Positions 14,493 through 18,792 of a DNA stretch of 20,000 nucleotides are shown here, in pieces. Source of the DNA: an uncultured virus (IMG/VR IMGVR_UViG_3300025809_000015) (Duplodnaviria > Heunggongvirae > Uroviricota > Caudoviricetes). The DNA is taken from the IMG/VR virus record IMGVR_UViG_3300025809_000015. One strand, given 5' to 3'. A program made the translations under genes and the position numbers. The notes under the pieces were generated by a model, which had not been told where the DNA came from, ran no database searches, and worked only from the letters and a program-made list of their open reading frames with translations. Within the stretch, counting starts at the first letter, position 1, and each line of letters begins with the position of its first letter.

Positions 14493-15074
14493 TTAAAAGT
14501 CACCAGGAGCTACTTGAAAACAGCTTAAGCCGTTATCCCTCCACATATTTACTACTTTAGTTCTATCATCAAATACACAAAGTATTCTATCCTTTTTATC
14601 ACCAGGAAATATATCATCCAACCAACCTTGCTTTAACTTATCATCTGGCATAAATGCCCACGGATGGCCAGTCGGTCTCATCTTCATTATATTAAATGGA
14701 ACATTATGTTTATCCAACCATGCGGCTGTCGCATCTTTAGTAGCTTTACTCCTTCCTGAGAATATAACAATAGTAAACCCTTGTGCATCTAAAGTTTTTG
14801 CCATTTCAATAACTGAGTGGTTAGGTAAATCTAATTTAATATTATCAGGATCAAAAAATGTATCCCAATCCATTTTGCCATTTGATTTAGTAGAGAGTTT
14901 TCTCCTATCATCAATAAGAGCAAGAGTACCGTCTAGGTCAAATATTACTACGTCTTTTTTCATATCTTTTGTTTTAATTGGTTGTGCATACCATAAAGGG
15001 TTTGGAAGTTCGGAATAATGATCCCATAACTTTTCCTCCAAAACATTAATGGTTATGTCGTTATCTAAATCCAT
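14493..15074 (-). CDS. HAD 3'-phosphatase resembling the T4 PseT/Pnkp phosphatase domain (alternative start 14963)
   Basis: FDLDGTLA, FSGR, MRP...D..LK, FDDR..VV.MWR..GL.CFQVA.GDF. Confidence 0.88.
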   Translation of the reverse strand: MDLDNDITINVLEEKLWDHYSELPNPLWYAQPIKTKDMKKDVVIFDLDGTLALIDDRRKLSTKSNGKMDWDTFFDPDNIKLDLPNHSVIEMAKTLDAQGFTIVIFSGRSKATKDATAAWLDKHNVPFNIMKMRPTGHPWAFMPDDKLKQGWLDDIFPGDKKDRILCVFDDRTKVVNMWRDNGLSCFQVAPGDF

Positions 15075-15650: not shown

Positions 15651-15716
15651 TAAATATAAACAATTTATTCGAATTCTGAACCATAAATTCACGTTATTTT
15701 CAAAAAGTTATTAACA
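15651..15716 (-). promoter_or_regulatory. Class A promoter with upstream TGTTAATAACTT element
   Basis: TAAATATA at 15651-15658, TCTGAA at 15675-15680, AAGTTATTAACA at 15705-15716. Confidence 0.8.
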
Positions 15717-16058
15717 ATTTTTAAACCTTTTGATTAGAGTTTCATCGTTAGGATTATTTTTAAGATCTTTAATTAGCAATTCTGCATATGCAAAGGAAAT
15801 TTCATTTCTTTTAACTTCTTCTAAAACACCACATGTAAATTCTTTACATTTGGATGGGCGGTTTTCATAAATCTTGCATAAATTACAGTTGTCTAACTGT
15901 TCACAGCCACCTGGGACTTGCCAGGAAAAACCAAAGTTAGTTTTTTCCTTTACAACATTTTTAAATAAATGATGTTTTGATTCTTCGACATATACACCTG
16001 GCCATAATGTACCATTACAGCATAAGCCACAATCTAAACATAAATCAGTTGCTTTCAT
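15711..16058 (-). CDS. YkgJ-family cysteine-cluster (Zn/Fe-chelating) protein
   Basis: CLDCGLCC ... C..L....C.IYENRPSKC..F.C. Confidence 0.85.
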   Translation of the reverse strand: MKATDLCLDCGLCCNGTLWPGVYVEESKHHLFKNVVKEKTNFGFSWQVPGGCEQLDNCNLCKIYENRPSKCKEFTCGVLEEVKRNEISFAYAELLIKDLKNNPNDETLIKRFKNC

Positions 16059-16240
16059 TTATTATTTTGCTTCTGCTGGTATATTGCTTTTTGTTTTTGC
16101 TTTCTTTTAGTTTCGGAAGGTTTAACAAATTCTTTTCTTGCTTTAATATCTTTAAGGAGCCTAGTCTCTCTACATTTTCTTTTGTACTTTTTTAATACTT
16201 TGTCGATTGATTCTTTTTCTCCTTTTTTGATTATTAGCAT
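16055..16240 (-). CDS. rpsU: Ribosomal protein bS21 (Bacteroidota type)
   Basis: MLII....ESIDKVLKKYKRK......K....RKEFVKPS..KR....KA.Y; 61 aa, very basic. Confidence 0.92.
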   Translation of the reverse strand: MLIIKKGEKESIDKVLKKYKRKCRETRLLKDIKARKEFVKPSETKRKQKQKAIYQQKQNNK

Positions 16241-16276
16241 ATTTAAGTTTTTGTTTTTATATTTATTAGATTAAGG

Positions 16277-16353
16277 TCGGGAAGATGGGACTTGAACCCA
16301 TATGTAACCAATTACTCTTTCTACAAGGTATAAGCTTGAGGAGATACATCCCG
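16277..16353 (-). ncRNA. tRNA-like RNA lacking a canonical D arm, with UAU anticodon-like loop
   Basis: CGGGATG/CTTCCCG acceptor plus A-CC; CAAG-CTTATAC-CTTG arm; GTAA-TTGG-TTAC hairpin; ATGGG-TTCAAGT-CCCAT T arm. Confidence 0.8.
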
Positions 16354-16361
16354 AGTCGCGG

Positions 16362-16435
<74 letters not shown>

Positions 16436-16441
16436 AGATGA

Positions 16442-16612
16442 TTAGGATGTTATAACTGCTATTATTAGTGTAACAGCTAATCCTATGATTGCAATAAAAG
16501 CTCCTATATAACTAGCTCTTAATTGTTCCTTAGATCTTCCTTGTCTATACATATTATTTTCTTTAATCTTTTTCAAGTATTCTTTACCGTTATTTGCAAA
16601 ATGATTCATCAT
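16442..16612 (-). CDS. Small membrane protein (56 aa; alternative start 16552)
   Basis: MMNHF...MYRQGRSKEQLRASYIGAFIAIIGLAVTLIIAVITS; not in the ORF track. Confidence 0.65.
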   Translation of the reverse strand: MMNHFANNGKEYLKKIKENNMYRQGRSKEQLRASYIGAFIAIIGLAVTLIIAVITS

Positions 16613-17141: not shown

Positions 17142-17171
17142 TAATTATAATCTATTTGCATTAATTCTGAA
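17142..17171 (-). promoter_or_regulatory. Class A promoter TTCAGA-N16-TATAATTA
   Basis: TAATTATA at 17142-17149 and TCTGAA at 17166-17171. Confidence 0.75.
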
Positions 17172-17337
17172 AGTTCTTTTTAAGAAAGATCCATAAAACT
17201 AAATAAATGCATAAAGCTGCAGGTATAACAAATAGAAAGGCTACTCTCCATAAGATTGAAGGTATTCCTGACCATTCTCCTAAACCTTGGCATACACCAC
17301 CAATGTATCCGTTTCCTCTATATAGTTTTGTATTCAT
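17161..17337 (-). CDS. pspC: PspC-domain membrane protein (58 aa)
   Basis: MNTKLYRGNGYIGGVCQGLGEWSGIPSILWRVAFLFVIPAALCIYLVLWIFLKKNFQN matches the PspC pattern KLYR..IGGVCxGL..R..Y...W; not in the ORF track. Confidence 0.85.
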   Translation of the reverse strand: MNTKLYRGNGYIGGVCQGLGEWSGIPSILWRVAFLFVIPAALCIYLVLWIFLKKNFQN

Positions 17338-18209: not shown

Positions 18210-18398
18210 TTATTTTACCCATTCTAAGTAAGCCATATTATAGGCAGATACCTTATCTAACTCAGGATCATCCTTCATAAATATTGCAGCTGTTGTTATA
18301 ACCTCTTGTTTTAAATTATAGGCATTGGCTTCTGTTAATATTTCTTCTATTTGAATGTTCTCTTCTATGAAGTCCCATTCTCTTCCACTATTAATCAT
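18210..18398 (-). CDS. Hypothetical phage protein
   Basis: 62 aa; IEEILTEANAYNL...AY.EWVK. Confidence 0.72.
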   Translation of the reverse strand: MINSGREWDFIEENIQIEEILTEANAYNLKQEVITTAAIFMKDDPELDKVSAYNMAYLEWVK

Positions 18399-18792
18399 TT
18401 GTTATCTTTTTTAAATAAGGTTTTCGGTCAGCCATTTGTAACCAATAGTTTTCACCGTAATGAGTACAAATTTCTTCGTCTTTTTTAATGTCTCTTTTTG
18501 CTATGTAATCAAAATGCATATTCTCTTCACTATCAATCCAATAAGCATTATGATTATCATCATGATTGTAAACACAACCTCCACCAGTAGGAAGTACTAA
18601 AGTTATAAACTTACCTTCTTGTGGATAATTAAAAACATAGTCATATATCATACCTAGCTCGGATACTTTAGTATCAACAGGTATAAGATAACATTTTTCA
18701 ATTAGTTCTCCTTCTTTAATATCTTCTGCTGCGTAGACTCCCATACCCTTGCCTTGCGTTTCTTTAAGATATATTTTAGTTGTTCTATTCAT
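18391..18792 (-). CDS. SET-domain protein-lysine methyltransferase
   Basis: GKGMGVYA..DI.EGE, YNH...N, IAKRDI...EEI..HYG..YW. Confidence 0.9.
   Translation of the reverse strand: MNRTTKIYLKETQGKGMGVYAAEDIKEGELIEKCYLIPVDTKVSELGMIYDYVFNYPQEGKFITLVLPTGGGCVYNHDDNHNAYWIDSEENMHFDYIAKRDIKKDEEICTHYGENYWLQMADRKPYLKKITND

Follow-up and report, generated by a model that had tools for sequence, protein, structure and literature searches.

Permuted transfer RNA (tRNA) genes are found in Cyanidioschyzon merolae and in some archaea, where they are permuted at the acceptor ends and a circular intermediate restores the canonical tRNA. Metazoan mitochondrial tRNAs devoid of a D arm are still thought to act as tRNAs, according to the accessible parts of two articles (PMC7609411; PMC4013460). 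The first of them, a 2020 review of natural non-canonical tRNAs, treats in its accessible part only the selenocysteine (Sec), allo, pyrrolysine (Pyl) and mitochondrial types, and neither "phage" nor "permut" occurs in that part. No description of a core-permuted phage tRNA was found in the full-text literature, subscription-only papers lying outside this scope. Here we describe an element of 77 nucleotides (nt), at positions 16277–16353 on the minus strand of a 20,000-nt stretch of DNA from an uncultured virus of the Caudoviricetes (IMG/VR record IMGVR_UViG_3300025809_000015; the whole stretch is referred to as the window), which appears to be a core-permuted tRNA-Ile(UAU) gene. The element is almost certainly a conserved, structured tRNA-derived RNA with a permuted wiring, in which the equivalent of the D stem encloses the anticodon arm. 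Judging from its sequence features, it is probably a functional, if structurally non-canonical, elongator tRNA-Ile(UAU) that reads AUA, and it is predicted to be charged and used in decoding. An earlier reading of this DNA by a model that saw only the letters (the original prediction) had quoted its sequence, stems, loop and discriminator, and the minus strand of 16277–16353 reads exactly so.

Helices and wiring of the core

The family collected comprised 226 copies with 132 distinct sequences, from marine, gut, rumen and soil phage contigs and from GenBank phages. In alignment A2, which holds 100 distinct sequences in 77 columns without gaps (column n corresponds to window position 16354−n), pairs were counted for two competing structures. 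The structure described below had 97.2% of its pair cells paired, as compared with 71.7% in shuffles, and its covariation score was 0.669, as compared with 0.179; none of 500 shuffles reached 0.669. When the partners were slid by 1–3 columns, pairing fell to 40–46%. Compensatory changes were present in 17 of the 20 pairs, and RNAalifold, fed with the alignment only, predicted the same structure.

Three of the helices resemble those of an ordinary tRNA. The acceptor stem (columns 1–7/70–76) showed compensatory changes in all seven pairs, with 95% of cells paired in A2. In the window, its 5' strand, CGGGAUG, lies at 16347–16353, and its 3' strand, CUUCCCG, lies at 16277–16284 together with the discriminator A73 (16277), which is invariant in A2; the 7 bp include one U·U. 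The T arm (16285–16301, columns 53–69) reads AUGGG-UUCAAGU-CCCAU. Its stem (columns 53–57/65–69) was 98.6% paired, with compensatory changes in four of five pairs in A2, and its loop follows the UUCRANY pattern. In the nearest virus record (G001, 91% identity over 684 nt) the element differs from that of the window at two positions only, and these form one T-stem pair (16288/16298, G-C changed to A-U), while the open reading frame (ORF) upstream of the element has diverged. The anticodon arm (16324–16338) consists of a 4-bp stem, CAAG/CUUG, a flanking U·U (columns 15 and 31) and the 7-nt loop CUUAUAC with the anticodon UAU at 16330–16332. Four Watson–Crick pairs accompanied by the conserved U·U (131/132) are typical of the family. 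The original prediction had taken this hairpin for an anticodon arm with an isoleucine anticodon, which agrees with the compensatory changes in three of its four stem pairs and with columns 20, 21, 23, 24 and 25 (C32, U33, A35, U36 and A37), all of which are invariant in A2.

The fourth helix, the D-like stem, pairs columns 11–13 (CUC, 16341–16343, the equivalents of positions 23–25) with columns 37–39 (GAG, 16315–16317, the equivalents of positions 10–12) and encloses the anticodon arm. All of its 300 cells were paired in A2 and two of its three pairs showed compensatory changes: pair 11–39 was CG in 92 sequences, AU in 7 and UA in 1, and pair 12–38 was UA in 70, CG in 22, AU in 5 and GC in 3. 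The same held for the 132 distinct sequences (396/396 cells paired), with CG 113, AU 11 and UA 8 at 11–39, UA 78, CG 41, GC 7 and AU 6 at 12–38, and CG 131 and UG 1 at 13–37. The D-like stem was also part of the RNAalifold prediction. No local D hairpin was present at positions 10–25, 5' of the anticodon arm, where the only supported helix is that of columns 11–13/37–39. Thus, the element cannot be called D-armless, as it had been in the original prediction, since it forms a D-stem equivalent by long-range pairing around the anticodon arm.

The single strands of the core are conserved as well. Columns 8–10 (UAU, 16344–16346) would be, by analogy, the equivalents of U8, A9 and U22; columns 8 and 9 are invariant in 132/132 distinct sequences, and at column 10, 128 of them have U and the other four have A. 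The anticodon arm is joined to the GAG strand of the D-like stem by the linker AGAAA (16318–16322, columns 32–36); with columns 33–37 left free in the pattern, 117 of the 118 copies still had GAAAG there. The GAG strand is in turn followed by a D-loop-like strand, AAUUGGUUA. In the window, this relocated strand occupies 16302–16314 (columns 40–52, UAAUUGGUUACAU), reads U-A-A-U-U-G-G-U-U-A-C-A-U, and contains the equivalents of A14, R15, G18 G19 (16308–16309), U20, A21 and Y48. The A14 equivalent, which is the A after the first U, and U8 are invariant (132/132), and so is the GG. Columns 42 and 52 covary (AU 111, GC 11, AC 5, GG 3, AA 2; n = 132) in the pattern of a putative R15:Y48 Levitt pair. 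The idea that the D-loop function had moved therefore survives in part: the invariant GG element is indeed located 3' of the anticodon arm, but not as the loop of a variable-arm hairpin.

The invariance of core columns was partly imposed by the search patterns. At least one of the first two scans had left each column free, except for columns 31 and 33–37; a later scan freed columns 31–39 and gave 120 matches, 118 of them tRNA-like. The D-like stem was fully paired in 95/95 distinct sequences of that scan.

With canonical numbering assigned by analogy, the chain would run from the acceptor strand through U8, A9 and U22 to the strand C23 U24 C25, then through C26 and U27 into the anticodon arm; it would continue with U43, N44, GAAA, the strand G10 A11 G12, U13, A14, A15, U16 and U17, and end with G18, G19, U20, U20a, A21, C, A, U48 and the T arm. 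Read in this way, the D/anticodon domain appears circularly permuted, with the nucleotides that build the L shape kept. The strand corresponding to the 3' half of the D stem (CUC) would come first and run straight into the anticodon stem, as nucleotides 22–25 do in a normal tRNA. Its partner (GAG) would follow after the anticodon arm and the GAAA linker, and the D-loop-like strand would then lead via Y48 into the T stem. The stack that begins at the top of the D-like stem and ends at the anticodon loop counts 4+1+5 layers, as many as in a canonical tRNA. The contacts of the L shape, U8 with A14, R15 with Y48, and G18/G19 with the T loop, are plausible by the same analogy.

Anticodons, amino acid identity and predicted decoding

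The anticodons of the 132 distinct sequences were UAU (91), GAU (31) and CAU (10), position 34 having been unconstrained in the second and later scans. In viral contigs, two scans of the same sequence frame, one for a base other than A at position 35 and one for a base other than U at position 36, gave no match; both required CCT, GAAAG and TAR-NN-GGT and are valid for this narrow subfamily only. In a metagenome collection, 20 matches had a position 35 other than A; 19 of them were chance matches and one, with the anticodon UCU, was a true member. This copy (L412, JACCDR011049599.1) has the loop CUUCUAA and thus an arginine anticodon, yet it carries the Ile-type U after the GG. Its anticodon may be in the course of switching, the copy may be dead, or the difference may stem from a sequencing error.

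A restriction of the family to isoleucine proved too strong a statement, because the covariance model R1 found six relatives of the same architecture with arginine anticodons, which lack the CCT, GAAAG and TAR-NN-GGT motifs, in Streptomyces, Microbacterium and Rhodococcus phages. Two are encoded by Mildred21, one with the anticodon UCG (NC_042008.1 91367–91442, L425 13368–13443; 69.5 bits by R1) and one with ACG (94857–94933, L425 16858–16934; 65.9 bits). The others, with 48–73 bits by R1, are those of Microbacterium phage A3Wally (ACG, MZ150783.1, about 93609–93685, L429 1495–1571), Rhodococcus phage Trina (ACG, MF668286.1 104372–104450, L430 1495–1573), and Streptomyces phages Yaboi (UCU, NC_048730.1 86686–86763, L428 401–478) and Francob (UCU, PP537961.1, L431 401–478). 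As D-like stems these genes have CCG/CGG, ACC/GGU, UCC/GGA and CGC/GCG, and the alignments flagged none of the pairs as non-standard. In GenBank, three of the six carry the labels tRNA-Phe, tRNA-Val(aac) and tRNA-OTHER, and the remaining three have no annotation. All three permuted genes of Mildred21 escape ARAGORN.

The base after the GG is A in all six Arg-type genes, together with C35 and A or G73, and U in the Ile-type genes, together with A73. In the accessible part of PMC9976931 (Table 1), the bacterial arginine identity set is A20, C35, U/G36 and A/G73, and the bacterial isoleucine set includes A73, U20, A35, U36 and A37. Since the A or U after the GG tracks these two sets, the relocated loop carries an isotype-specific position-20 nucleotide that fits the anticodon. 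This match in the sequences provides the strongest indirect support for the strand being a D loop and for charging by the cognate synthetases.

The window copy carries the isoleucine determinants A73, A35, U36 and A37. At position 34, where the same part of PMC9976931 gives G or a modified C (lysidine) for isoleucine, the window copy has U; among phages, canonical tRNA-Ile of the UAU type is present, for instance, in the crAss-like phage Kehishuvirus tikkala (OQ198717.1). As to the minor determinants of Escherichia coli (U20, U21, G16, U12-A23, C4-G69 and C29-G41; the host here is not E. coli), the core of the window copy has the U20-like U after the GG, but its equivalents of 12–23 and 29–41 are G-C and A-U.

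The genomic setting resembles that of a tRNA gene. A same-strand canonical tRNA was present within 150 nt upstream of 110 of the 226 copies (median gap 7 nt) and downstream of 75 (median gap 11 nt). In the window, the upstream neighbour is a canonical tRNA-Arg(UCU) on the same strand (16362–16435, found by ARAGORN; 71.7 bits with RF00005), and the gap to its end at 16362, as given by Rfam, is 8 nt, just as the original prediction had placed it. C followed A73 in 224 of 225 copies, and the corresponding base was C in 541 of 558 canonical tRNAs from these loci, so that the 3' trailers of the permuted genes look, at the level of sequence, like those of the neighbouring tRNAs. In the ORFs of the window (GC content 32.8%), AUA accounts for 134 of the 334 isoleucine codons, and the three canonical tRNAs of the window read AGA, UUA and CAA, which are favoured A-ending codons.

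In some genomes, the permuted gene could supply a missing isoacceptor. The 462-kb uncultured phage LR756500.1 has 27 tRNAs called by ARAGORN for 18 amino acids, with neither a canonical tRNA-Ile(GAU) nor a canonical tRNA-Ile(UAU) among them, and its permuted element is of the GAU type. This phage also encodes a transfer-messenger RNA (tmRNA, tag GNNAEMRMAA) and a tRNA with the anticodon CUA, labelled Pyl by ARAGORN, at about 94.5 kb and 110.7 kb (L400 33512–33922; L401 10653–10721); the latter is likely an amber suppressor. In tikkala, a canonical tRNA-Ile(UAU) is present and the permuted element (95577–95653) is of the GAU type; an odd tRNA at 90123–90211 (minus strand; L399 2624–2712) makes a gap-filling role there no more than a possibility. 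The odd tRNA scores 55.7 bits with RF00005, has 23 nt between the strands of its anticodon stem, is annotated as tRNA-His and called Ile(aat) by ARAGORN, and its variable region and T arm look Ile-like; its anticodon loop may contain an insertion or a small intron. The idea of a missing isoacceptor thus holds for LR756500.1, but not for Mildred21, as described below. In Mildred21, the permuted Ile(GAU) gene (73703–73779) starts 15 nt past the stop codon of a gene annotated as tRNA nucleotidyltransferase, i.e., of the CCA-adding enzyme type (NC_042008.1 73167–73779; L424 2959–3571).

Parts of the window are matched by six metatranscriptome runs, four of which were compared. In three of the four, which come from three studies, single contigs span the element and its neighbours (16086–16428, 16129–16609 and 16167–16419), and two of these three contigs carry the compensatory T-stem pair of G001. 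A scan for promoter-like and terminator-like sites did not detect a separate transcription unit for the element: between 15600 and 17600 there were no terminator-like sites, and eight promoter-like sites as compared with 8.6 expected. The tRNA-Arg gene, the element and a downstream gene for a phage ribosomal protein bS21 lie on one metatranscriptome contig (16086–16428) with no terminator-like site between them, which makes a tRNA–tRNA–mRNA co-transcript a possibility.

According to the mechanism that we propose, the element would be co-transcribed with tRNA-Arg, and perhaps with bS21 too, and would be released by RNase P and 3' trimming. After CCA completion, it would be charged by the host isoleucyl-tRNA synthetase (IleRS) through A73, A35, U36, A37 and U20, and would then supply AUA decoding for an AT-rich phage.

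Several observations weigh against a decoding function of this kind. Mildred21 has both a canonical tRNA-Ile(UAU) and a canonical tRNA-Ile(GAU) beside its permuted GAU copy, so that gap-filling fails there, and a few loci hold a canonical tRNA-Ile with the same anticodon as the permuted copy. The window copy has G4-C69 instead of C4-G69 (C-G in 63/100 of the family) and U instead of G at the equivalent of position 16, and its anticodon stem has only four Watson–Crick pairs and the U·U. The evidence from RNA libraries consists of assembled contigs, which indicate presence only; the strand, the ends and CCA are invisible in them, and they might stem from carried-over DNA. As mentioned, the search patterns account in part for the invariance of several core columns; the single-sequence fold is no more stable than shuffles and uninformative alone; and the claim about the three-dimensional shape rests on analogy.

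On balance, we lean towards the view that the family represents a second natural tRNA topology, i.e., that phages encode functional permuted Ile and Arg elongator tRNAs, which host synthetases would charge and which EF-Tu and the ribosome would accept. If so, phages with this topology would infect at least four groups of hosts, namely marine bacteria, Bacteroides, Actinomycetota and the hosts of the huge phages from rumen and gut. That the rewiring was selected to remove a feature used by host tRNA-directed nucleases or tRNA-sensing defences seems quite improbable.

The element is unlikely to be, instead, a processed tRNA mimic that does not serve decoding. Such a mimic might be a regulatory RNA, or it might act as a sponge or, as the original prediction had suggested, as a decoy, binding a host factor with specificity for tRNA-Ile. 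The host factor in question could be an anticodon nuclease, an acetyltransferase toxin or a modification enzyme. In favour of a mimic, the architecture is non-canonical, and in Mildred21 and a few loci the permuted gene lies beside a canonical tRNA-Ile of the same anticodon. Moreover, the core, with the GAAA linker (117/118) included, is far more conserved than that of ordinary tRNAs, and this linker might serve as a surface for protein binding; a gene for a polynucleotide kinase-phosphatase (PNKP) domain of the tRNA-repair type lies 1.2 kb away. However, a mimic would have no obvious need for three isoleucine anticodons, for identity nucleotides that switch with the anticodon (U20 with NAU, A20 with NCG or UCU), or for an anticodon branch of canonical length. 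In the 462-kb phage, the element is the only GAU-type isoleucine candidate in a near-complete tRNA set, and the loci examined contained no linked defence gene or specific partner. The identity nucleotides that track the anticodon, the setting in tRNA arrays, the tRNA-like 3' trailer and the codon use favour a decoder over a decoy, the two functions that the original prediction had put forward.

Detection, relatives and neighbouring genes

As the original prediction had expected, tRNA finders gave no tRNA call for the element. ARAGORN found three tRNAs in the window (Gln, Arg and Leu) and nothing on the element, and Rfam at the gathering score found the same three and none on the element. Over 16200–16460 (261 nt), Rfam at E ≤ 10 gave no match of the tRNA model (RF00005) on the element, only chance-level plus-strand "Plastid" matches at or near it, of 16.5 bits (E 0.56) and 21 bits (E 0.041). 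Among the relatives, RF00005 scored 24.5 bits for the copy of tikkala, which is under the 29-bit gathering cut-off, and 30.3 bits for that of Mildred21; ARAGORN calls overlapped 2 of the 226 family copies.

The minimum free energy (MFE) of the window copy was −15.8 kcal/mol; shuffles averaged −15.55 (z = −0.08), and 83 out of 200 folded equally well; a single sequence, taken alone, could owe its stems to chance or be in decay. The MFE fold of this one sequence contains a local hairpin, GUAA-UUGG-UUAC, which sits 3' of the anticodon hairpin and has four complementary pairs in the window. The original prediction had regarded it as a hairpin at the variable-arm position of a D-armless tRNA, with the GG in its loop. 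Such a structure is very improbable, as its helix (columns 39–42/47–50) had no compensatory pair in 100 sequences, and RNAalifold did not predict it. Pair 41–48 was unpaired in 40/100 sequences and pair 39–50 in 8/100, and these 8 are exactly those in which column 39 changed together with column 11 and keeps pairing with it. Of the four stems whose covariation the original prediction had proposed to test, the acceptor, T and anticodon stems thus showed it, and the GG hairpin did not.

The covariance model R1 detected the element in the window as a single copy with 99.2 bits (E 1.6e-25), the next-best match having 18.8 bits. Members of the family scored 71–99 bits, as compared with 28 bits or less for canonical tRNAs, and four matches fell in between. 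One of them (41 bits) is a decayed copy, and three (31–35 bits) belong to a second subfamily. The decayed paralogue (L241 912–987) lies beside an intact copy (727–803); its D-like and anticodon stems are broken and its GG is changed to GA. The second, rarer subfamily consists of permuted Ile(GAU) genes (L235 1811–1887, L249 1599–1675, L271 1644–1720, L422 582–658 and L423 582–658) in which the anticodon stem has 5 bp, the D-like stem is ACC/GGU and the GG strand differs. In its five sequences, 99% of the pair cells were paired and 10 of the 20 pairs were compensatory, with the D-like stem invariant. A first search pattern for this subfamily gave three false matches. In three loci, a gene of the second subfamily lies 100–300 nt upstream of a UAU copy of the first. 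One locus (L423 582–969, IMGVR_UViG_3300033049_000020) holds three permuted Ile-type genes in a row, of which the middle one (664–754, GAU) has a 15-nt insertion directly after the GG motif and the third (890–969) is of the UAU type.

An exact 25-mer of the T arm and acceptor had no match in viral contigs, because those stems vary. A 26-mer of the core matched at least 120 viral contigs, and with a looser pattern 110 stretches were added, some of them chance matches in coding DNA. Hundreds of marine contigs carry unannotated copies. Copies are also carried by the crAss-like tikkala, by LR756500.1 (462 kb) and by about 80 cultured Streptomyces phages. A blastn search of GenBank phages with the element of the window gave two records only: tikkala, where the element lies unannotated between tRNA-Trp and tRNA-Met of a tRNA array, and LR756500.1. 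The actinophage copies needed other family members as queries; these gave 81 and 86 GenBank phage records, of which 78–82 were Streptomyces phages and one was a Rhodococcus phage. Among the GenBank phage matches listed, no annotated feature lay under the match. In a collection with one genome per prokaryotic species, a scan found 43 loci, every one in a metagenome-assembled genome. Their phyla were scattered, and no locus bore the label of an isolate; one was on a 362,763-bp scaffold labelled "Paceibacterota". R1 was applied to 42 of them (L254 was omitted, as it overlaps L253), and 41 held a member, L262 being without one. We read these loci as phage contigs in genome bins and not as host genes.

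Although tRNA finders are silent and one clearly decayed paralogue exists, the element is almost certainly neither a tRNA pseudogene in decay nor a functionless piece of a rearranged tRNA gene. Four helices and a tertiary pair show compensatory changes among the 132 distinct sequences, which come from marine, gut, rumen and soil phages, and G001 differs by one compensatory pair only while the flanking ORF has diverged. The compensatory changes likewise uphold the view of the original prediction that the element is an intact, selected tRNA-derived RNA.

The window includes genes for a DNA ligase, a dCMP deaminase, an endonuclease V-like protein, bS21 and a PNKP phosphatase domain, and it looks like a region of a T4-like marine myophage. 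The gene for phage bS21 (16055–16240, minus strand; PF01165, E 7.8e-12; phrog_21469) is located 36 nt downstream of the element. In pelagimyophages, S21 is a core gene, and some members have a tRNA(Ile)-lysidine synthetase, as stated in the accessible part of PMC7029224. The PNKP-type gene (14493–15074, minus strand), 1.2 kb downstream of the tRNA cluster, encodes a protein of 193 amino acids. Its match to polynucleotide kinase-phosphatase is confined to the phosphatase (HAD) domain (PF25109, E 1.8e-28; phrog_505); this is an enzyme of the T4 tRNA-repair type. Small phage ORFs that flank the tRNA region, all on the minus strand, encode a SET domain (18391–18792, E 5e-13), a PspC domain (17161–17337, E 2.9e-13) and a CxxCxxCC zinc/iron-chelating domain (15711–16058, E 7.4e-09).

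Significance and comparison with known tRNAs

If the decoding function predicted here is true, translation requires the L shape and not the cloverleaf order. In addition, tRNA genes that are hidden from ARAGORN, Rfam and most GenBank annotation would come to light, and counts of phage tRNA repertoires and of AUA and CGN decoding capacity would change. The permuted RNA would be a possible orthogonal scaffold for engineering, and it would provide a concrete test case for the question of whether phages reshape tRNAs to escape tRNA-targeting immunity. As cultured phages carry the family, among them tikkala, which infects Bacteroides cellulosilyticus, and Mildred21 of Streptomyces, direct testing is feasible.

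With canonical tRNA-Ile of bacteria and phages (RF00005), whose isoacceptors are GAU, CAU with lysidine and UAU, the element shares the 7-bp acceptor stem, A73, the 5-bp T stem, the UUCRANY loop, the anticodon loop C-U-NAU-A-N, the equivalents of U8, A14, R15, G18 G19, A21 and Y48, a length of 77 nt and the location in tRNA arrays. It differs from canonical tRNA-Ile in that it has no local D hairpin, its D-stem equivalent encloses the anticodon arm, and its D-loop equivalent lies 3' of that arm.

Like the allo-tRNAs and the 8/4 or 9/3 tRNAs of bacteria and phages described in the accessible part of PMC5389517 (Mukai et al. 2017), the phage elements are natural and non-canonical, come from metagenomes and phages, have in some cases a UAU anticodon and are missed by tools. 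Those tRNAs, however, combine the 8/4 or 9/3 split of a 12-bp acceptor branch and long variable arms with a normal D hairpin, whereas the phage element is 7/5 with a rewired D arm.

The lack of a D hairpin between the acceptor and anticodon stems is a feature shared with the mitochondrial D-armless tRNAs, such as mt-tRNA-Ser(AGY) and the armless tRNAs of nematodes. Those tRNAs have lost the D stem and the contacts of G18 G19 with the T loop and work with co-adapted mitochondrial factors. In contrast, the phage family keeps a re-ordered D-like stem (396/396), an invariant GG and a standard T loop.

Finally, the permuted tRNA genes of C. merolae and archaea resemble the phage genes in that tRNA segments are permuted. 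Unlike in those genes, the ends of the phage gene are the acceptor strands, and its internal permutation would persist in the mature RNA.

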